Shown in pieces: positions 2,368 to 58,005 of a DNA stretch of 64,000 bases. A program made the translations under genes and the position numbers. The DNA comes from a virus. Below the pieces are notes generated by a model. It saw only the letters and a program-made list of their open reading frames with translations. It was not told the DNA's origin and did no database searches. The stretch lies in UHGV virus genome UHGV-0351052; one strand, given 5' to 3'. How positions within the stretch are numbered: the stretch's first letter is position 1; each line of letters starts with the position of its first letter.

Positions 2368-3051
2368 TTATCGTTTTGTTGGAAGAGACAGAGGATCGCA
2401 TTCTTCCTCTGATGGAGCATCTTCGAGACCCATAGCATATCGCAAAGCATACTTCATCATCAGGATGTCTTTCGCACAGTCATGAATAGAATCATGTGCA
2501 ACGAATCCATCTAAAGTTCCCTTTGGAAGAGGACACGTGGTCATATCACGAACAAGCAGAAGTGCTTCAATTCTGGTACGAATATCACGCTGATTCCAGA
2601 ATTTACATGGTTCTAACTTAAATGTATCAAGCTCATTTTCGGAAACGCCGTTAAGACGTTGAATATCACGAATAAGATCGACTAAAATTGGAAAATCAAA
2701 CGACATTCCACGGCACCAGCCTTGAGATTTCCAAGGATCGATATTATGTGCATTGATGTAATCATTAAATTTTGCAATACCGTCAATAGTACTTACATCT
2801 TCATCGGATGGTGCAATATTTTTTCGAGCTTCAGGTGATTGATTTTTCCACCATTCAATAGTGCTTTTAGTAAAAAGACGATGTCCTTTTTGGCTTTTTA
2901 AATCAAATTTGATTTTAATGCCACGTGAAACTAATTCATCAAATGTTTCAACTACTTCTGGATTAGGGTCAAAGGCAATAACAGCCAAATCAATAACAGC
3001 TGCCTTTTCACCGCTTCCCATTGTTTCAAAATCTATAATAAAATCAAACAT
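2368..3051 (-). CDS. dexA: exonuclease A (DexA-like, DEDD 3-prime-5-prime exonuclease)
   Basis: 227 aa; N-terminal IIDFETMG exonuclease motif; directly downstream of dda as in T4. Confidence 0.75.
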   Translation of the reverse strand: MFDFIIDFETMGSGEKAAVIDLAVIAFDPNPEVVETFDELVSRGIKIKFDLKSQKGHRLFTKSTIEWWKNQSPEARKNIAPSDEDVSTIDGIAKFNDYINAHNIDPWKSQGWCRGMSFDFPILVDLIRDIQRLNGVSENELDTFKLEPCKFWNQRDIRTRIEALLLVRDMTTCPLPKGTLDGFVAHDSIHDCAKDILMMKYALRYAMGLEDAPSEEECDPLSLPTKR

Positions 3052-3326: not shown

Positions 3327-3546
3327 CTAAAATGTAATCACTGATTGTAACAGTTTTTACTTCACCACAAAAGAATTCTAACGCAATTAAATCTCGTTCA
3401 ATTTCTTCCAATTGAAGCATTAACTTGCCTGATTCAGTTTTCACATTTTTGCGATTTTTGCTATAAGCAATTTCATAAATTTCGCTTACTTTATCTTGAA
3501 GAAGATAAAACTGATCTTTAGTTATTTCCACGAATAGCTTCCTCAA
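3286..3546 (-). CDS. hypothetical protein, 86 aa
   Basis: ORF-track ORF overlapping previous by 41 nt; no motif. Confidence 0.4.
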   Translation of the reverse strand: MRKLFVEITKDQFYLLQDKVSEIYEIAYSKNRKNVKTESGKLMLQLEEIERDLIALEFFCGEVKTVTISDYILGEISYLYKAVIND

Positions 3547-3552
3547 ATTTAA

Positions 3553-4872
3553 TCATACATAAAACACATCATAACGACCACGCGTTACACCAACATAAAG
3601 AAGTTGTTGAGCCAATTCAGCATCTGCATAATGAATACAAGGCGTATAAATGAAAGCACGGTCTACAGACATGCCCTGAGCTTTATGGAATGTTGATGCA
3701 GGAAGTGCTTTCACTTTACTAAACTGTGATTTAGCATCCCAAAAATCACTCCACGGGGCTTTTCCGCCTTTATTCCAATTTTTATAAGTTTCTGCCGTTT
3801 TACCTAAAAATAGGTTAAACTTATACAATTCTTCATCAGATGAAATTATTTTAATCTTTTCACGATAATATTCATCATCGCCGTAAGTTTCTACTGTTAA
3901 ATCCCAATGACGAATTAAGTATTCTCCAGGAACACCACGGGCTTTAACAAAGGTTGATGTATACTCTGCTTCTATAATACGAACTAATTGTCCGTTATTA
4001 AAAATAATTTCTGACACAGGCTTTCCATCAATTTTATATGTTTTAATTAATGGTTCCTGCATTACAATAATTTCACCAACAATAAAATCTTTATCAGTTT
4101 CAAAAATCTTTTTACGAATAATGCTATTTAACTTGTCAACAGATTTATTCGTAAATGCCATTACGCGATTTTCAAACAAATCATCTAGTGATTTGACGAT
4201 TGAAAAATAATTTACCATAAAATCGCGTAAAGCAGTATCACCAGTAAATCCACGTACTCCATGCCCGTCAACAATTTTATCATAAATCCACTTACCGTTA
4301 CGAACGTCAGTAGCTACATCAATAATAGGAGCATTACTGCGTTTAACTTCAGTGAGTTCACACTGATAAAAATCTTTGTGTGTAAAGAATGGACTGATAT
4401 AAGCAGTATTTTCTCCTGGGTCAACAGGTCTAATTTGCTTATTATCCCCTATTCCAATTATAGTACACCACGGCGGGATAGTTGAAAGCAGAATTTTGAA
4501 TAGCTTTCTATCATACATTGACACTTCATCGCAGATTAATACCCTGCATTTAGCTAAATCTGGTACTTCCTTCTGTTCAAAAAGAACATTTTCTTCATAT
4601 GTTACTGGGTTAATTTTAAGAATACTATGAATAGTACTTGCTTCTTTCCCTGATAGTTTTGAAAGAATCTTTTTAGCTGCATGAGTAGGAGCTGCTAAAA
4701 TAATACCAGTTTCACCCGTAGATATTAAAGCTTCAATGATGAACTTGGTAAGAGTAGTCTTACCGGTACCAGCAGGTCCATTAATAGTTACATGATGTTT
4801 CTTTTCTTTGATAGCCCTCATAACGATGTTAAAGGCATTTTTCTGGCCTTCTGTCAAATCATCAAATGTCAT
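3553..4872 (-). CDS. dda: Dda SF1B DNA helicase
   Basis: 439 aa; Walker A GPAGTGKTT, Walker B LICDEVSM; near-identical to T4 Dda as recalled. Confidence 0.9.
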   Translation of the reverse strand: MTFDDLTEGQKNAFNIVMRAIKEKKHHVTINGPAGTGKTTLTKFIIEALISTGETGIILAAPTHAAKKILSKLSGKEASTIHSILKINPVTYEENVLFEQKEVPDLAKCRVLICDEVSMYDRKLFKILLSTIPPWCTIIGIGDNKQIRPVDPGENTAYISPFFTHKDFYQCELTEVKRSNAPIIDVATDVRNGKWIYDKIVDGHGVRGFTGDTALRDFMVNYFSIVKSLDDLFENRVMAFTNKSVDKLNSIIRKKIFETDKDFIVGEIIVMQEPLIKTYKIDGKPVSEIIFNNGQLVRIIEAEYTSTFVKARGVPGEYLIRHWDLTVETYGDDEYYREKIKIISSDEELYKFNLFLGKTAETYKNWNKGGKAPWSDFWDAKSQFSKVKALPASTFHKAQGMSVDRAFIYTPCIHYADAELAQQLLYVGVTRGRYDVFYV

Positions 4873-5180
4873 CGTAAATTCCCTGCAATTGGTATACTAA
4901 CAATACGCCCAGTATCTAAAATTCGCTGATATAATCTTTGTGTGTCTACATCAGGCTTAACATGTTTAACTTCTATTTTATTAAACCAAAATTTACGTGG
5001 AGTCTCAACTAATCTTGGAATTCCCTTACCTAAAGCTAGTCGATACTGCTCTTTGAGAGTAGTAAAAACTCTATCAGCAATCTCTCTTTCAAAAAACACA
5101 GCAGGACGATGTTCATCAAGCGGAACTGGCGCCGTAAATCCGTCTTTGTCTCGGTAAACTATCGCATATACATAAACCAT
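4869..5180 (-). CDS. hypothetical protein, 103 aa (dda.1 slot)
   Basis: ORF-track ORF; ATGA overlap with dda. Confidence 0.4.
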   Translation of the reverse strand: MVYVYAIVYRDKDGFTAPVPLDEHRPAVFFEREIADRVFTTLKEQYRLALGKGIPRLVETPRKFWFNKIEVKHVKPDVDTQRLYQRILDTGRIVSIPIAGNLR

Positions 5181-5181
5181 A

Positions 5182-5928
5182 TTATCCTCGGATAAGTTTA
5201 AAAATTGAACAATTTAGCGGATATCCTCTTTTCAGTTTAAGTTTATCAATAAAAGACAAGTTTTGATACCGCTCTACACCTTGAATAATTTTATCACACA
5301 TATCATATTGCATTTCTGCTTCTGACAACTTTTTCACAGTTTTCCAATCCGAGCCTTTAAGAAGAACGTTCAATTTAACAACTTCAGCGCCTTCTGCTAT
5401 ACGAGAACCATCAATACGAGCTTTGAGTGCTACAATCGTTAGCTTAATATCAGAGGTTTGTTTTGATTTAGAAAGCTGAGAAATGTGTTCAATTCGGTTT
5501 TCACGTTTTTTCTGTATAGCTTTAATTTGATTATAAGTCTTTTTGATTTTAGCCCATTTCTTTTCATCTAAATTTAGTTTATGAACTTTTTTCGCAGATG
5601 AACGACCAATTCGCAAAGCAAACAAATCACGCTTTTCAATCAACTCTTCTAAAGTATAATCAGAACGAAATGTATTATACTTTTTCTTTACTGCAATAAC
5701 ATTCCCTTTAATGTATCCAACGTTATTATCAAAACGTTCTAATGATAATTTCTCTCCTTCAATACGATTATCAAAAGGTTCTCCCGAGTAAGCGCAAACT
5801 TTCTGATCTAAAATGTTCTTAATGTAATTGAAGTCTAAGTTAAAATCTTTAGAACGTCTTTTAGCAGATGCCTGAGTGTGCTCTAGACGACGTGTAATTT
5901 TACGAATTTGATTTTTAGACAGCTTCAT
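5182..5928 (-). CDS. basic 248-aa protein in the srd slot
   Basis: Lys/Arg-rich; segment CAYSGEPFDN...SLERFDNNVGYIKGNV vaguely HNH-like; assignment by position only. Confidence 0.4.
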   Translation of the reverse strand: MKLSKNQIRKITRRLEHTQASAKRRSKDFNLDFNYIKNILDQKVCAYSGEPFDNRIEGEKLSLERFDNNVGYIKGNVIAVKKKYNTFRSDYTLEELIEKRDLFALRIGRSSAKKVHKLNLDEKKWAKIKKTYNQIKAIQKKRENRIEHISQLSKSKQTSDIKLTIVALKARIDGSRIAEGAEVVKLNVLLKGSDWKTVKKLSEAEMQYDMCDKIIQGVERYQNLSFIDKLKLKRGYPLNCSIFKLIRG

Positions 5929-10707: not shown

Positions 10708-11496
<789 letters not shown>

Positions 11497-11595
11497 TCAT
11501 TTATTGCAGCAAAAAACGAATTATACAATTCTTCATCATATGTATTTGATAATACTAACACGTTTTGCGATAAATATTAATTTAAAGGAGGATAC

Positions 11596-11796
11596 ATGGT
11601 ACAAAAATTAATGGCACTTGTTAATGCCATAAAAGGTAATAAGAAACGTATAGCTTTTACTATTTCTGCTATGATAGGAATTTTACTTTGGAATTTTGTT
11701 TTATCGCCAGTTGCTATTGCTCATGGCGTTAGTATTCCAGTAGTTACTCTTGATACATTCGTAGATTTAGCATTTGCTTTAGTTGGGTTAATTTAA
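11596..11796 (+). CDS. small two-helix hydrophobic protein, 66 aa; only intergenic plus-strand ORF in window
   Basis: AAAGGAGG about 5 nt before ATG 11596; no competing minus-strand ORF in the 305-bp dam-61 gap; convergent overlap with gene 61 stop. Confidence 0.35.
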   Translation: MVQKLMALVNAIKGNKKRIAFTISAMIGILLWNFVLSPVAIAHGVSIPVVTLDTFVDLAFALVGLI

Positions 11797-12821
11797 ATCT
11801 TAGCATATTTAGATAGCCGCATTTTAGCCATCAACCCCTGGGCAATATTATTTTTCATATATTCCATAATTTGTTCAGGGGTTGCACCTTCCTTTCTAAT
11901 CATATCATTAACATCTTTTGATTTCCAGGGAGATTTATCCCAAAACATAACCCTTTCTCCTGCATCAACTAATTTAGTCATTCGTTTAATAGTGTCAGGG
12001 TGACGAGGTTCATTATCTAAGACCCACACTCGTCTATCTTTAAATGGAACAACTTCTAGGTCTAATTGACCACCCGTAATAGCTATACCATTTTCAATAA
12101 AAAGTGAATCTATAGGTCCTTCTAGAACATATACATCACCATCTTTAACTCGTTCGACTCCATAGATTTTTGTTGCCTCAGGATAAGCTTTGATGGTGAT
12201 ATATTTTTGAGGAGCATCTTTCTTTAATGCACGTCCTTGAAAAGACTCAGCTTTTCCATTAGCATTATAAATTGGAATAACAAGACGAGGCTCAGAAATT
12301 TCCTTTTTGTATGTTCCCGGTGCTATGCTATTAACCAATTTAGGCCATTCGGTTGTAAACCAAAGATATTTCCATTTATCCTTTGGAATACAACGAGCTT
12401 TTACGTATTTTATAATTGGATGGTCTTCCGCCAGTTTATCTAATCTAACACATGACGGAAGAGATTTAATTATTTTCTTCTCAGGTTGTTTAGGAAGTTC
12501 TTTAGGTTTTTCTACTGGACGACTTTTACCTTTTTCTTTTCTTATTTCAAAGATATACTCACGATATAAATCAGGTTCAAACTCCTTTAGATATATTCCG
12601 ATTGGTGCATGATAGTTACAGTTATAACAATGAATATTTCCTTCATTATTATCACCATAATACCATCCACGGGCTTTATTTTGGTCGGTTTTTGAATCTC
12701 CACAAACAGGACATCTAAACCGTAATTTAAAAGTTGAACTATTATTTACTTGTGTGAATTTAGGTAAATGAGCTAATGCACGGTATGCGAACTCATTATC
12801 AATCCAAGGTATTGATGACAT
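11793..12821 (-). CDS. 61: DNA primase gp61
   Basis: 342 aa; N-terminal zinc ribbon CPVCGDS...CYNCNYH; Toprim-like core. Confidence 0.9.
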   Translation of the reverse strand: MSSIPWIDNEFAYRALAHLPKFTQVNNSSTFKLRFRCPVCGDSKTDQNKARGWYYGDNNEGNIHCYNCNYHAPIGIYLKEFEPDLYREYIFEIRKEKGKSRPVEKPKELPKQPEKKIIKSLPSCVRLDKLAEDHPIIKYVKARCIPKDKWKYLWFTTEWPKLVNSIAPGTYKKEISEPRLVIPIYNANGKAESFQGRALKKDAPQKYITIKAYPEATKIYGVERVKDGDVYVLEGPIDSLFIENGIAITGGQLDLEVVPFKDRRVWVLDNEPRHPDTIKRMTKLVDAGERVMFWDKSPWKSKDVNDMIRKEGATPEQIMEYMKNNIAQGLMAKMRLSKYAKI

Positions 12822-12823
12822 TT

Positions 12824-12988
12824 TTACTCTTCTTTTTCTTTAGATTCCTCTTTTTTCTTTTTAGGAATCTGTTCAGGACCTTTATTTACTACAGCACCTG
12901 ATGTTGTTCCAGTAGAGATATTTTCAGGATTACCACCTGAATCTCCAGCAACCATATCTTCTTTGATAAATTCTTTATATGTTTTCAT
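12824..12988 (-). CDS. 61.1-slot small protein, 54 aa, with internal-protein-like N-terminus
   Basis: hand translation MKTYKEFIKEDMVAGDSGGNPEN...; N-terminal 10 aa match the start of the ipIII-like ORF. Confidence 0.4.
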   Translation of the reverse strand: MKTYKEFIKEDMVAGDSGGNPENISTGTTSGAVVNKGPEQIPKKKKEESKEKEE

Positions 12989-12989
12989 A

Positions 12990-13616
12990 TTAACCTCTAT
13001 TCATAAAAGCATTAAAAATTTGGTCATCAATAGAAACATTTACTTTAGACTGTTTTTCAGATGGCAATTCATATCCACATATTACAATTTTATGATCAAT
13101 ATCAAAATACACAGAAGCAATATGATTAATGATGTTTTCAGTAAAGTCTAAATCAACATCAATATCTTTTTGACCACAGCCCAAAGGATAAATAATGCGA
13201 GTAATTCGATTATCTTTAACAAATATTCCACCGACATACTCTGTGCTGCGTTTAAAGTCTACACGCCGACGAAATGAAAAATATTCAGGCTCTTTATGAG
13301 CTCGGCTCATAGGGCACAACGAATAACTAGAATAAGAGATGTCAAATCCTACGCCTTCAATATGAACTAAATTGTCATGATTAAACCAATTATAATCATA
13401 TGCCAAGTCCATTAGATTGTCATATGTAAAAGGCACCGGATTAACATCATTGGTCACAAGCATATAATTAGCAACTGCTATAATTTCATTATTTTTAACG
13501 AATACAAACCGTGATTGATGCGAATGACCTGGACCTGCGTTTTCACGATTAATGATATAACACTGGGCACCTTTATATTTGTACGTGTCTTTACACTTGT
13601 GCATTTGATAAAGCAT
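12990..13616 (-). CDS. 61.2-slot protein, 208 aa (T4 61.2/AdfA-like by position)
   Basis: size and synteny; no motif verified. Confidence 0.45.
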   Translation of the reverse strand: MLYQMHKCKDTYKYKGAQCYIINRENAGPGHSHQSRFVFVKNNEIIAVANYMLVTNDVNPVPFTYDNLMDLAYDYNWFNHDNLVHIEGVGFDISYSSYSLCPMSRAHKEPEYFSFRRRVDFKRSTEYVGGIFVKDNRITRIIYPLGCGQKDIDVDLDFTENIINHIASVYFDIDHKIVICGYELPSEKQSKVNVSIDDQIFNAFMNRG

Positions 13617-13909
13617 TATTCACCTACCACTTCAGCGATGATATTTTTATTATTAAAGTTTTTATCACAATACAGAACATAATTATACTGCATTACACCA
13701 CCAGACTTAAGCTGTTTTTGCACTTCAGCTTTCATTTCAGGACGATCACGCTCAACTATATTCATAATATCTGCTTCAATTTGAGTTTCAACCTCAGTCT
13801 GATCCGCAGTCATAGACCATTCGCACAAATCTTTATCATAACCTGCCATAGCAGGCTGAGCAGCACAAGAAGCTAAAGCAAAAATTGTAGCAAAGATAAA
13901 TTTTTTCAT
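13616..13909 (-). CDS. sp: Spackle-like periplasmic protein (signal peptide, 97 aa)
   Basis: MKKFIFATIFALASCAAQPAMA signal peptide; 97 aa from ATG 13909; ORF-track start 13957 is an N-terminal over-extension. Confidence 0.55.
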   Translation of the reverse strand: MKKFIFATIFALASCAAQPAMAGYDKDLCEWSMTADQTEVETQIEADIMNIVERDRPEMKAEVQKQLKSGGVMQYNYVLYCDKNFNNKNIIAEVVGE

Positions 13910-13938
13910 GATTAATCTCCTCAGTAGTTTATGTTTAT

Positions 13939-13968
13939 ATAGTATCTCAATTTCCAATAAAAGTAAAC
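13939..13968 (-). promoter_or_regulatory. T4-type early promoter
   Basis: minus-strand GTTTAC 13968-13963, -10-like TACTAT 13944-13939; upstream of sp. Confidence 0.4.
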
Positions 13969-13970
13969 AG

Positions 13971-14228
13971 TTATTTTAAAACTTTTGCATAATCACATGT
14001 TACAAACTGTTTCTCTAACTTGACGATCTTACGAAAATACCTTTTACACTGACGAATCTGCCTCTTCGTAGGACGTACAGCAAACTTAATAAATTCCACT
14101 CGACCAAATGGAGGACTTTCTTCTGCTGGAATATCTAACACCAATTCCCACGTATCTGCAATAAGTGCTTTGAATTGCGTATTTTTCCTGATGTTATACG
14201 GCGTAGGTTTAAATAAAACAATATGCAT
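13971..14228 (-). CDS. 61.4-slot protein (TifA-like by position; 85 aa from internal ATG, 99 aa from first start)
   Basis: size and synteny only; basic C-terminal half. Confidence 0.4.
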   Translation of the reverse strand: MHIVLFKPTPYNIRKNTQFKALIADTWELVLDIPAEESPPFGRVEFIKFAVRPTKRQIRQCKRYFRKIVKLEKQFVTCDYAKVLK

Positions 14229-14229
14229 A

Positions 14230-14412
14230 TTATCCTCGGCAATCCACTTCACATACTTTCTTGTCATCAATGAAAGCTTTAACTAATGCTTTATTAACTT
14301 CAGCATATTGAGTAGTAGCCCATTGAACGTCATCTTTCATCATTGTGGTTTCTTTAGTAAACATGCTTTCATTCTTAAACCACCCCATAAAAACTACCTT
14401 TACCAATTCCAT
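14230..14412 (-). CDS. dmd: Dmd-like antitoxin-type protein, 60 aa
   Basis: 60 aa, immediately downstream of gene 41; size and slot match T4 dmd (61.5). Confidence 0.5.
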   Translation of the reverse strand: MELVKVVFMGWFKNESMFTKETTMMKDDVQWATTQYAEVNKALVKAFIDDKKVCEVDCRG

Positions 14413-14441
14413 AACAATCTCCTCATTTAACCAACAAGACT

Positions 14442-14471
14442 ACTATACCATAGTCTCGTCAGCTTGTAAAC
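14442..14471 (-). promoter_or_regulatory. T4-type early promoter
   Basis: minus-strand GTTTAC 14471-14466, TGG+TATAGT 14450-14442. Confidence 0.45.
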
Positions 14472-15898
14472 TAAAATTTTAATTCATTTGCCAAAGCATC
14501 TAACTGAGCTCGAGTGGATTCGTTTCTTTGATAGCGATTCTGCTCAGCCTGAATCTGCTGCGAACCTGCTACTTCACTCACTCCAGTTGGAGTAGAATCT
14601 TGTTCAATTTCTACCCATTTCTGATTTCCCTTTTGAACACCCATCAAAAACTTATTCCATTTGTTCTTATCACCATATCGTGATTTGATTTGCTTAATGA
14701 GTTGTTGCTCAGCAGCTGCTAGCTCCTCAGTTTCAATGACCGCAAGCATAAAATCAGCTGTTGCTGGAAGACCAGCAGATTCTGCAATATCGCTCATGTT
14801 AACATCGGAAGAGTCCCAAGCTTGTTTACCAACCTGTGCTGCAGTCCAAAGAACAGTTTCGGTTTCAACAGCCAGAGCACGCAATTCCTCTGCAATAGCT
14901 TTAACAGTTGTGTAACTATTTTCTGAATAAACTCTAATGCGGCAAGATTTACAAATACCTAGATAGTCAACAATAATGATTGTTGGAACAAAATTCTTCT
15001 TGAGCTTTAATTCATTTAAAAGCGATCGAAATGTATTAGCATCTGCTCCACCGGTAGGATACTGTTTAACGATTAAACGACCGAGAGTAGATTTCTCACG
15101 CCATTTTTCCATTTTTCCTTTATACTCAGCGTAAGAAATATGCCCATCATCAATGTCATCAAGAGAAACATCAAGCATATTAGCATCAATACGCTTAGCA
15201 CAGACTTCTTCTGCCATTTCCATGGAAATGTAAAGAACATTATGTCCGAGCTGTAAATAATCTGCTGCCAATGAACACAGACCTAATGACTTACCAACGT
15301 TAACGCCAGCCATTAAAACGTTCAGTGTTCCAGTTTCAGCTCCGCCTTTAGTAATTTTGTTTAGAATTCTGAGTTTAAATGGAACCTTACGAGCTTTATT
15401 CATATAAGATAGCCAACGTGCTTCATAGTCATCCATCCAATCATGACCAACGTAACTATCAAATGAAATTGATAATGCTTGGCGCATGATGTCAGGAATA
15501 GCACCAACATCCGGCATTTTCTTATTTCGTTTTTCCGGAGGAAGCTCAGCATTAGTTTGAATTTCGATTATTTTAGACGTAGCATTAAACATCGCCCTTT
15601 GCTGAACATATTTTTCTGTTTCTTTTACTAACCAGCTATGGTCTTCCGGAGAATCAGCTAGTTTTGAAATAAGTGTTTTTACACCAGAATATTCTGTTTC
15701 AGTAAATGAACTATTTTCTAATGCAACATTTAACGCATTAATAGATGGAACGCTATGATACTCATTGACATGAGATTTAATTAATTTGAATGTATTTTTA
15801 GCTGGACCACTTTCAAAATATTCTGAATCCATATATGGCCAAACTTTTGAAAAATAAGCTTGATCAAATATGAGATGAGAAAGAATAATTTCTACCAC
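14471..15898 (-). CDS. 41: replicative DNA helicase gp41 (DnaB family)
   Basis: 475 aa; Walker A GVNVGKS; DnaB-like architecture. Confidence 0.9.
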   Translation of the reverse strand: MVEIILSHLIFDQAYFSKVWPYMDSEYFESGPAKNTFKLIKSHVNEYHSVPSINALNVALENSSFTETEYSGVKTLISKLADSPEDHSWLVKETEKYVQQRAMFNATSKIIEIQTNAELPPEKRNKKMPDVGAIPDIMRQALSISFDSYVGHDWMDDYEARWLSYMNKARKVPFKLRILNKITKGGAETGTLNVLMAGVNVGKSLGLCSLAADYLQLGHNVLYISMEMAEEVCAKRIDANMLDVSLDDIDDGHISYAEYKGKMEKWREKSTLGRLIVKQYPTGGADANTFRSLLNELKLKKNFVPTIIIVDYLGICKSCRIRVYSENSYTTVKAIAEELRALAVETETVLWTAAQVGKQAWDSSDVNMSDIAESAGLPATADFMLAVIETEELAAAEQQLIKQIKSRYGDKNKWNKFLMGVQKGNQKWVEIEQDSTPTGVSEVAGSQQIQAEQNRYQRNESTRAQLDALANELKF

Positions 15899-15907
15899 AC
15901 TTACTCC

Positions 15908-16270
15908 TTAAAAGAATTTAAATTTTTTCTTTGACCTTTTATTAAATGCATCTTGCAGTTGCATTGTAATACATTTTTCTACATGAGGAGCTAACTCAGC
16001 TTTTCTTTCTTGGTCAAGAACAGCAAAGTCCATTACAACCTTTCCATCAACCCAATCCAGTTTAGTTACATACACTATATGTGTAGAACCATCTTCTAGT
16101 TTAATGACAATCTCCTGGATAACATTTTCCATAGCGGATTTAATTATCTTAAGAGACTCATTAAAAAGACGTTCTTTTCTTTCTTCTTCCCCCTCCGAAG
16201 AGGGGGATTCATCGATAATTTCTAGATCTAAATCTAAATCATCTTTACTCATTAAATTCTTCCATATCAC
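15908..16270 (-). CDS. hypothetical acidic protein, 120 aa (gene 40 slot)
   Basis: position between 41 and uvsX; no motif. Confidence 0.4.
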   Translation of the reverse strand: MIWKNLMSKDDLDLDLEIIDESPSSEGEEERKERLFNESLKIIKSAMENVIQEIVIKLEDGSTHIVYVTKLDWVDGKVVMDFAVLDQERKAELAPHVEKCITMQLQDAFNKRSKKKFKFF

Positions 16271-17426
16271 TTAACTGCTCGAGGTCAGTTTCTAAATCAG
16301 CAGCTGATTTACTTTTACTTTCTGGAGATTTAAATTTTTCAACCTTTGAGTTAATCAATTCATCAACTTCAGCTTCAACAATTTCATTACTATCAATAGC
16401 ACCTAACTGATAAGCGCGTTTAATAGCATCTCGGAATGGTTGATGCTTAAATAAAGGACCCCAGAATGTAGTGCAGTTGGTATCTTTTGCACGCCAAGAT
16501 TTTTCTTCGCGAATCATCTCGCCAGTTTCTTCGTCAAGAAATTCACGAGCATACCAGCCATTTTTAGGTTTTACTACAAATCCTAATTCTAGAGCCATAT
16601 CTAACAATCCAGAATAAGGATCGATACCACCGTCAAATTTAACATCAATAAAGAATTTACTTTTTTCTTTAACGGTACGAGATTTTTCTACATTTAGAAC
16701 AAATTGATACCCCTGAAGATCAGAACCATCTTTAATCTGACGCTTACCGATAATGAATACGGTATCAGCCGAATACATTACGCCTGTACCACCTGTCATC
16801 ACGGTTTTACTAAACATTTCAATTGTTTCAATTGTATGGTTAACCGCAACACATGGAATATTTTTAATGCTAAAATAAGGAGTAACAATACGGAATAATG
16901 ACTTCAGTGATTTAGCACGAGTCATATCTGCCACAGATTTTTCATTCAAGGCATCTTCCGTTTCTTTCTTAGAAGCCATATTACCGATTGAGTCGATGAA
17001 TACAATAACCTTTTCACCACGCTCAATAGCTTCAAGCTGGTTCACCATATCAATTTTCAGCTGTTCAACTGACTGAATTGGCGTATGAATTACTCGTTCC
17101 GGGTCAACTCCCATGGATCGCAAATAAGCTGGAGTAATACCAAATTCGCTATCATAGAATAGACAAACCGCGTCAGGATATTTGTTCAAATATGCCGCAA
17201 CCATAGTCAAAGACATATTTGATTTAAAGTGTTTAGAAGGCCCTGCGAAAATAGTTAAACCAGACTGCATACCGCCATCAATCGCACCAGAAATAGCGAT
17301 ATTAAGCATTGGAATTTTTGTACGAATTACATCCTTTTCATTAAAGAATTTAGATGTAGTCAGTTCAGCAGTCATTTTAGAAGTGGAAGCTTTAATCAAA
17401 CGGGATTTTAAATCTGCAATAGACAT
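16245..17426 (-). CDS. uvsX: UvsX recombinase (RecA/Rad51 family)
   Basis: 393 aa; Walker A GPSKHFKS; RecA-fold core. Confidence 0.9.
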   Translation of the reverse strand: MSIADLKSRLIKASTSKMTAELTTSKFFNEKDVIRTKIPMLNIAISGAIDGGMQSGLTIFAGPSKHFKSNMSLTMVAAYLNKYPDAVCLFYDSEFGITPAYLRSMGVDPERVIHTPIQSVEQLKIDMVNQLEAIERGEKVIVFIDSIGNMASKKETEDALNEKSVADMTRAKSLKSLFRIVTPYFSIKNIPCVAVNHTIETIEMFSKTVMTGGTGVMYSADTVFIIGKRQIKDGSDLQGYQFVLNVEKSRTVKEKSKFFIDVKFDGGIDPYSGLLDMALELGFVVKPKNGWYAREFLDEETGEMIREEKSWRAKDTNCTTFWGPLFKHQPFRDAIKRAYQLGAIDSNEIVEAEVDELINSKVEKFKSPESKSKSAADLETDLEQLSDMEEFNE

Positions 17427-56810: not shown

Positions 56811-57386
56811 TTAATTACCACGGGCCGCATTAGCAACGGCGTAAGCATACTGAACATTAGCGTCCTTAAACGTACCTTTAGAGGTATCTATTTCTGCCTT
56901 AAAGCCGCCTTTAGCCATAACATCGGCAAATTCTTTACGGAAAGCCATTGCATCAAGACCTTTCCATGATGATTTATGCTTGGCAAATTCAAGACCAGCG
57001 TAGTTGACAGCCTTAGCTAATTTATTATCAATAACCCATTTACCAGCTTTAGGCACAAACACCGGGCCTTTCTGTTTGGAGAATAGTTTTAAATTCCAGC
57101 GACGAAGGTCACCGTCAGCTTTAACAAAAGCTGCGTCCAAGTTACTAGCAACAACATCTTGAATATGGCCAAATTTAAGCCCATCAACTTCAATATTTAG
57201 ATCGGTACGCCAGCGAAGTCCTTCCCAAGCGAAGCCTTTAAAGTCGGAAGCCTTTGTAGCTAAGTACCGTTCAATAGGAGCTGTTTTAGGGTCAAAGCCG
57301 TTTCCTCGGTAAGTCCACTCATCTTTATTAATGCCTTTGGCCTTTTCCACAGAAGCTTCGGCGATAAATTCTTTATACGTTTTCAT
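56811..57386 (-). CDS. ipIII: internal protein (ipIII-like), capsid-targeted
   Basis: N-terminus MKTYKEFIAE = T4 internal-protein capsid-targeting sequence; 191 aa, basic; just downstream of e. Confidence 0.6.
   Translation of the reverse strand: MKTYKEFIAEASVEKAKGINKDEWTYRGNGFDPKTAPIERYLATKASDFKGFAWEGLRWRTDLNIEVDGLKFGHIQDVVASNLDAAFVKADGDLRRWNLKLFSKQKGPVFVPKAGKWVIDNKLAKAVNYAGLEFAKHKSSWKGLDAMAFRKEFADVMAKGGFKAEIDTSKGTFKDANVQYAYAVANAARGN

Positions 57387-57474: not shown

Positions 57475-58005
<531 letters not shown>

Follow-up and report, generated by a model that had tools for sequence, protein, structure and literature searches.

The genes between primase and helicase in virus genome UHGV-0351052: a probable T4-type accessory island and a capsid-like module in gp61.1

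Five small genes are placed between the DNA primase gene 61 and the replicative helicase gene 41 in a stretch of 64,000 nucleotides of the virus genome UHGV-0351052, the whole of which is called the window here. The questions raised by this locus are whether these genes form a counter-defence cluster, as a preliminary description of the DNA proposed, and whether their specificities have diverged from those of phage T4. The comparisons indicate that the window comes from a Tequatrovirus and that the region corresponds by orthology to the T4 early accessory island 61.1-61.2-sp-61.4-dmd, with T4-type functions suggested by near-identity (probability about 0.9). Orthology, intact open reading frames (ORFs), conserved determinant residues, and promoter-like sites are established for this region. 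The island is already known and is in its commonest T4/T2-type configuration. Srikant, Guegler & Laub (2022, PMC9391042) named the region a possible "anti-TA island", as dmd, tifA, and adfA (61.2) lie close to one another there.

Positions 12700-14500 were compared with public genomes by megablast. The DNA was 97.8% identical to T4 (NC_000866, 18842-20641) over the full length and collinear with it, and the RefSeq annotation of the matching T4 stretch reads 61, 61.1, 61.2, sp, 61.4, dmd, and 41. Homologous DNA was found in 630 phage records, nearly all of Tequatrovirus and close relatives, with phage ECML-134 as the best match (98.5%). Therefore, the five-gene pattern is not due to chance. In pairwise alignment, the five proteins were 96-99% identical to T4 61.1, 61.2/AdfA, Spackle, 61.4/TifA, and Dmd, i.e., one to three differences per protein (Table 1), and the outcome of unrelated ORFs was not seen. 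The match to the T4 set in order and size, which had been proposed for the five genes, was borne out by coordinates, by sizes (54, 208, 97, 85, and 60 aa), and by this near-identity. All five exact protein sequences were present in public collections by exact-sequence look-up.

Domain searches agreed with these assignments. The Pfam matches were AdfA (1.5e-136), T4_Spackle (1.3e-44), DUF7279 (3.8e-20), and Dmd (1.8e-45), all far over the gathering scores, and the PHROGs matches were in agreement with them. gp61.1 had no match in the Pfam scan, and the PADLOC and NCBIfam scans of the five island proteins gave no matches. In the literature, 61.2 is adfA and 61.4 is tifA (PMC9391042, PMC11257639), 61.3 is Spackle (PMC7650644), and 61.5 is dmd, an inhibitor of RnlA and LsoA (PMC8266594, PMC3014915).

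Dmd matched Pfam PF17587 over its full length (153.5 bits). It was identical to the crystallised antitoxin PDB 5hy3_B at 59 of 60 residues, the difference being I22T, and 100% identical to Dmd of phage T2. Dmd inhibits RnlA/LsoA directly, seated in a groove beside the HEPN domain (PMC8266594; PMC3014915). The Dmd of the window is expected to inhibit the same two HEPN RNase toxins.

TifA matched Pfam PF23945, i.e., DUF7279, with 72 bits against a cut-off of 24.5, and also phrog_2375. The name tifA was given to gene 61.4 once T4 had been seen to escape toxIN through amplification of the dmd-tifA operon (PMC9391042). The protein binds ToxN and RNA and traps ToxN as an inactive ribonucleoprotein, for which it requires a Pro-Thr-capped basic helix (P53, T54, K55, R56, R59); residue 41, in the ToxN-interface loop, tunes the strength, with the Phe of T4 being weak and Ser or His strong (PMC10853763). 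In the alignment with T4 and RB69, all five helix residues were invariant, and residue 41 of the window protein was Phe, the weaker T4-type allele. The three substitutions V13I, E82K, and I83V fell outside residue 41 and the PT-KR..R helix. This exact allele was found on three public contigs. By analogy with T4, TifA would be co-transcribed with dmd from an early promoter, bind RNA through its basic C-terminal helix, and trap the ToxN endoribonuclease in an inactive ribonucleoprotein complex.

AdfA was covered by Pfam PF23813 along residues 1-208 (452.9 bits, cut-off 27) and was identical to the protein of phage VEc74. AdfA binds DarT1 only with His at the position of RB69 Arg164 (PMC11257639). 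The window protein has His165, which aligns with RB69 Arg164, i.e., the R164H escape position, and L62P, F147C, and P190S all fall outside it. This His165 allele would therefore be of the type that binds the DarT1 ADP-ribosyltransferase. A PDB sequence search with AdfA and with TifA returned no solved relatives.

Spackle matched Pfam PF25676 (151.1 bits) and was identical to PDB 6x6o at 96 of 97 residues; its K53E is the T2 allele. The signal peptide comprises residues 1-22 and the mature periplasmic protein residues 23-97. The signal peptide, which had already been noticed from the sequence, is confirmed at 22 residues because the mature crystallised chain 7cn6 begins at Gly23. The residues contacting gp5, as given in PMC7677548 and PMC7650644, were all present (S32-A35, Q37, N76, V94, G96, and E97), as were C29/C81. 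Spackle, a periplasmic protein, inhibits the gp5 lysozyme of a superinfecting phage (PMC7677548, PMC7650644). The window protein, exported via its signal peptide, would lock the gp5 tail-lysozyme of a later phage in an open and inactive state. Because it acts on the lysozyme of a superinfecting phage, Spackle is a superinfection-exclusion protein and not a counter-defence protein. The earlier assignment of the four slots to AdfA, Spackle, TifA, and Dmd thus agreed with alignment, Pfam, and literature, except for the counter-defence role given to Spackle.

The preliminary description also regarded the locus as a place to look for diverged specificities, i.e., for alleles retuned to other DarT, ToxN, or RnlA homologues. 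Codon differences from T4 were 22 synonymous and 10 non-synonymous in the island, and 46 and 4 in genes 61 and 41, so the non-synonymous share of the island exceeds that of these two flanking replication genes (Fisher p = 0.014), which would fit such retuning. The TifA V13I allele was also missing from the phage genome collection (best match 98.8%), and single residues are reported to tune both AdfA and TifA (PMC11257639, PMC10853763). However, the specificity residues AdfA His165 and TifA Phe41 are unchanged, both Dmd and Spackle match the T2 alleles exactly, AdfA is the VEc74 allele without a difference, and the substitutions are few and mostly conservative. All five sequences, moreover, exist in public data. 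Since the codon differences of the island are mostly synonymous, its genes are under constraint; the accessory genes are less constrained than genes 61 and 41, yet conserved. Retuned alleles are considered very improbable, and no evidence of new specificities was found at this locus.

Some points weigh against a full set of T4-type functions. The single-copy Phe41 TifA beats chromosomal toxIN and not plasmid-borne toxIN (PMC9391042). The deletion of adfA in T4 had no phenotype on DarTG1, even in a phage lacking adfN, and AdfN (gene 30.3) is the effective anti-DarTG1 factor in T4 (PMC11257639). With TifA V13I, AdfA F147C, and AdfA P190S among the differences, every activity ascribed to the island proteins is presumed from the T4 orthologues. 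With these points included, the T4-type reading is kept: the phage holds the standard T4/T2 anti-toxin set (Dmd, TifA, and AdfA) plus Spackle, and the locus is no source of new specificities. Because the set is the standard one, T4-like behaviour is predicted on rnlAB, lsoAB, and chromosomal toxIN hosts.

The only lead worth following in this locus is gp61.1, whose very widespread, strongly conserved, capsid-like module includes a protease site. Study of it could bring to light an unrecognised participant in T4 head maturation or a capsid mimic of a new kind. The term "gp61.1" was not in use in the literature searched, where the other "61.1" matches opened were volume or page numbers, and no role as a processed capsid-protein copy was described there.

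Residues 1-10 of gp61.1, MKTYKEFIKE, are similar to MKTYQEFIAE, the capsid targeting sequence (CTS) of T4 internal proteins. In the CTS, positions 4 and 7 are for targeting and positions 8 and 10 for prohead-protease processing, at an L/I-X-E motif (PMC9026906, PMC8442874). gp61.1 matches it at the targeting residues Y4 and F7 and at the processing residues I8 and E10. The CTS motif occurred in one other ORF of the 64-kb window, the internal virion protein gene at 56811-57386 (MKTYKEFIAE), and 28 of the first 33 nucleotides are shared by the two genes. No further CTS-bearing internal-protein ORF was found across the window. As to co-variation of the CTS between 61.1 and internal proteins, in the divergent phage CLB_P2, of which the first 50 kb were covered, one internal-protein-like ORF starts with MKTYNEFLNE and 61.1 with MKSFKEVMNE.

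The internal virion protein gene of the window lies on the minus strand, shortly downstream of gene e for lysozyme (57475-57969), and encodes 191 aa beginning MKTYKEFIAE/ASV... (phrog_5341). Late-promoter motifs were located at 57983-58003. At the place of this internal-protein gene, T4 carries ipII and ipIII.

The CTS-like start raises the reading that gp61.1 is a packaged and injected peptide. It would enter the prohead core by its CTS and be cleaved behind Glu10 by the prohead protease gp21, and the 44-residue product would travel with the DNA and act first in the next host like IPI*, as a fifth anti-defence factor. If gp21 cuts there, the product is expected to start at Asp11, with DMVAGDSGG as its first residues. 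Beside the fit at the four mapped positions (PMC9026906, PMC8442874) and the 28 of 33 nucleotides in common with the 5' end of the internal-protein gene, this reading is favoured by the conserved N-terminus of short-form homologues and by a hydrophobic-x-Glu just before MVAGD, which is kept in all members of the gp61.1 family. On the other side stands the timing of expression. In T4 time-resolved data, 61.2, sp, 61.4, and dmd are early as RNA and protein, and 61.1 gives early RNA only, with its protein undetected in the time-resolved proteome (PMC9697503 supplement). The late promoter motif TATAAATA had no match in the island. Internal proteins are highly basic (PMC8442874), and the predicted 44-residue product, with nine acidic and seven basic residues, is slightly acidic. 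Long gp61.1 forms, which are the ancestral ones, are without the CTS, and the gene sits among replication genes throughout Straboviridae. Packaging followed by injection is rather unlikely on this evidence.

A second likeness was found to the major capsid protein gp23. In a phmmer search against PDB, gp61.1 residues 4-39 matched T4 gp23 residues 59-94 with 16 identities in 36 positions (E 0.0085). Profile comparison by hhalign gave a probability of 92% (E 6.6e-7) for 19 short-form homologues against gp23, and 95.4% (E 1.8e-8) for 16 long-form homologues against gp23 62-101. Residues about 8-45 of gp61.1 form a conserved module like gp23 62-101, followed by a Lys/Glu-rich C-terminal tail. The matched gp23 segment spans the Glu65-Ala66 maturation site and the start of mature gp23*. 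In the reading preferred here, the T4-type gp61.1, with its CTS-like decapeptide, would be recognised by gp21 and probably be cleaved behind Glu10. In some database records, 61.1 orthologues already carry the name "major capsid domain-containing protein". In MAFFT, the long forms had seemed to resemble the gp23 propeptide in their N-terminal domain, and this hint was rejected, as hhalign aligned the C-terminal module only. AlphaFold2 prediction of gp61.1 from a 16-sequence alignment gave no confident fold (pLDDT 61, pTM 0.19).

From these comparisons, gp61.1 may mimic the N-terminal segment of gp23 in soluble form and so compete for, or act as a decoy towards, a partner of that segment, which might be a chaperone, the prohead protease, a translation factor, or a capsid sensor of the host. 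The significant profile comparisons to gp23 residues 55-101 argue for it, and so does the position of the module as the most conserved part of the family in more than 1400 phage records. Capsid proteins are also known to trigger host defences (PMC9712102; for Gol-Lit, PMC3014915). However, an early-made mimic of a trigger could damage the phage rather than benefit it, and the binding to a partner is hypothetical. Mimicry of this kind is likewise held to be rather unlikely.

The family of gp61.1 is much wider than the island. The protein matched phrog_1823 (7e-34) and the C-terminus of phrog_2086. It carries the module pattern [LIVMF]-x-E-x(0,1)-[ML]V[AGSV]GD..G(x)5I..G..(S/T)G(x)5(G/S)P, then a Lys-rich tail, and its gene adjoins gene 61. 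An exhaustive HMM search found 51 cluster representatives, most of which are 120-250 aa long and bear the module C-terminally. By tblastn, a short-form query matched 1416 phage records, and a long-form query matched 609, with hosts including Escherichia, Klebsiella, Acinetobacter, Vibrio, and Aeromonas. The synteny beside the primase gene 61 was seen in Aeh1, APCEc01, RB69, and T4, and the order in Aeromonas phage Aeh1 is 41, 61.1 (155 aa), 61. Because the family is far wider than the island, 61.1 is a long-standing gene of the helicase-primase junction. The T4-type gp61.1 is, as judged by these alignments, a truncated version with a CTS-like start of an old family of 130-160 aa proteins found across Straboviridae between 41 and 61. 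The genes for anti-toxins and exclusion seem to be insertions next to the pre-existing 61.1. The description of the locus as a counter-defence cluster was kept for AdfA, TifA, and Dmd and given up for 61.1, an old and widespread gene rather than island cargo.

A truncated gene may also be a decaying remnant without function. About a third of the ancestral protein is kept, the RB69 gene is apparently split in two, and the failure to detect the protein in T4 would suit such decay. However, short-form homologues are spread across several genera with 63-96% identity and with start and motif intact, the exact gp61.1 allele was found on at least 1000 contigs, and the gene has a good Shine-Dalgarno sequence. 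Decay is quite unlikely in view of this conservation.

Taken together with the CTS-like start, the gp23-like module leads to a tentative proposal for gp61.1. Made early across the whole of Straboviridae, the protein would be a free copy of the gp23 cleavage site and N-terminal arm, which in T4-type phages is carried on a CTS, taken into proheads, and cut by gp21. Its role might be that of an injected effector, or of a competitor or decoy towards a partner of the gp23 N-terminus. The island without a late promoter and the slightly acidic mature peptide weigh against this proposal, as do the undetected T4 protein and the AlphaFold model of low confidence. Because of these four points, the early-only RNA, and the long forms without CTS, cleavage with packaging, and mimicry, are put forward as hypotheses and not as findings.

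The coordinates of the island, its flanking genes, and its promoter-like sites are collected in Table 1. A Shine-Dalgarno sequence stands before each of the five island ORFs. Between the genes there are gaps of 0-2 nt or a 1-nt overlap, the exceptions being spacers of about 60 nt upstream of sp and dmd. Longer ORFs with TTG starts for sp (113 aa) and 61.4 (99 aa) are upstream read-through only. tifA is directly downstream of dmd, its ATG 2 nt past the dmd stop codon.

Table 1. Genes and promoter-like sites at the primase-helicase junction of the window, with amino-acid differences from T4
Feature	Position	Strand	Description	Differences from T4
Gene 61, DNA primase (flank)	11793-12821	minus	342 aa	two amino-acid differences from gp61
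Gene 61.1	12824-12988	minus	54 aa, intact ORF	F4Y, I26T (2 differences; 96% identical)
Gene 61.2 = adfA	12990-13616	minus	208 aa, intact ORF; anti-DarT factor A, His165 allele	L62P, F147C, P190S (3 differences; 99% identical)
Gene sp (61.3) = Spackle	13616-13909	minus	97 aa from ATG, intact ORF	K53E (1 difference)
Weaker promoter-like site upstream of sp	13939-13967	minus	-35 TTTACT, 17-nt spacer, -10 TACTAT; read by eye, 8/12	
Gene 61.4 = tifA	13971-14228	minus	85 aa from ATG, intact ORF; Phe41 allele	V13I, E82K, I83V (3 differences; 96% identical)
Gene dmd (61.5)	14230-14412	minus	60 aa, intact ORF	I22T (1 difference)
Early-promoter-like site for the dmd-tifA operon	14442-14470	minus	TTTACA, 17-nt spacer with TG, TATAGT; scan 10/12, extended -10	
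Gene 41, replicative helicase (flank)	14471-15898	minus	475 aa, GTG start	two amino-acid differences from gp41

The sigma-70-like site upstream of dmd begins right after the gene 41 stop codon. In T4, an early promoter upstream of dmd drives dmd-tifA, and a further promoter lies downstream of tifA (PMC9391042). The candidate site upstream of dmd has the position of the T4 dmd-tifA early promoter, and the site upstream of sp would be consistent with the T4 promoter downstream of tifA (PMC9391042), with its score of 8/12 being under the threshold of the promoter scan. A terminator scan found no terminator-like sites in the island region, the Rfam scan of 11000-16500 (E <= 1) no families, and the tRNA scan of the region no tRNAs. 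Repeats in the island were short matches at chance level, with nothing resembling amplification junctions.

The neighbouring genes show traces of exchange. Gene 41 had 39 nucleotide differences from T4, with E439G and N441S as the only amino-acid changes, and the neighbouring dmd had a single nucleotide difference. This contrast points to the 41/dmd junction as lying near a recombination boundary. The dam methyltransferase gene is placed at 10708-11487 on the minus strand between genes 56 and 61, as in T4. ECML-134 and VEc74, the closest phages over the island, are without dam between 56 and 61; the window is therefore mosaic relative to its nearest database relatives. A hydrophobic ORF of 66 aa (MVQKLMALVNAIKGNKK...; phrog_2024) was found at 11596-11796 on the plus strand, convergent with gene 61 and overlapping it by 4 nt at its 3' end. 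This ORF is intact in T4, where it is without annotation in NC_000866, and it is hypothetical in RB69 (ORF029w), ECML-134, and VEc74.

Compared with the T4 anti-TA island, the window has all five genes in an unchanged order and orientation between the same flanks, 61 and 41, and a promoter-like site upstream of dmd. It differs by ten amino-acid substitutions, none of which is at a known determinant residue. The locus of RB69, i.e., of Mosigvirus, also holds 61.1, adfA, sp, tifA, and dmd between 61 and 41, but it is larger, and RB69 and APCEc01 hold imm, imm.1, and four further ORFs there. The AdfA of RB69 has Arg164, which is inactive against DarT1, whereas the window has His165. The TifA of RB69 has His41 and is without the C-terminal 15 residues, whereas the window has Phe41. 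The 61.1 of RB69 is of a long or split form, whereas that of the window is short.

In the RB69 locus sequence, gp61.1 is annotated with 92 aa and is accompanied by an upstream 63-aa ORF032c with a 4-nt overlap (2318-2784). Mosigvirus APCEc01 has a single 61.1 ORF of 155 aa (locus sequence 3501-3968), the C-terminal part of which is nearly identical to RB69 61.1. Because one ORF in APCEc01 corresponds to two in RB69, the RB69 61.1 looks split or frameshifted. The extra ORFs of RB69 are located at 2593-3001 and 4012-5899 of its locus sequence, and none of them is in the window. Phage teqhad has an extra 118-aa ORF between 61.1 and 61.2 (locus sequence 791-1147), which is not in the window either. 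Across phage records, AdfA falls into two identity groups, i.e., 224 records at 95% or more and 253 at 60-80%, and for TifA as for Dmd, a T4-type group stands apart from groups whose identity lies below 60-80%. As a general idea, evolution of this locus by exchange holds good, and the locus is plastic in relatives.

IPI, IPII, and IPIII, internal proteins of T4, share with gp61.1 an N-terminus that fits the CTS at the four mapped positions and ends in L/I-X-E (PMC9026906). gp61.1 is unlike them in being 54 aa long with an acidic mature part, in having RNA at the early stage only, and in having long homologues without the CTS. From gp23 it differs in that the likeness is limited to a segment of roughly 40 residues, without the HK97-fold body, and in that the N-terminal domain of its long forms is unlike the gp23 propeptide. 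Within that segment, gp23 residues about 55-101, the cleavage motif stands at the same alignment position in both proteins, with an hhalign probability of 92-95%.

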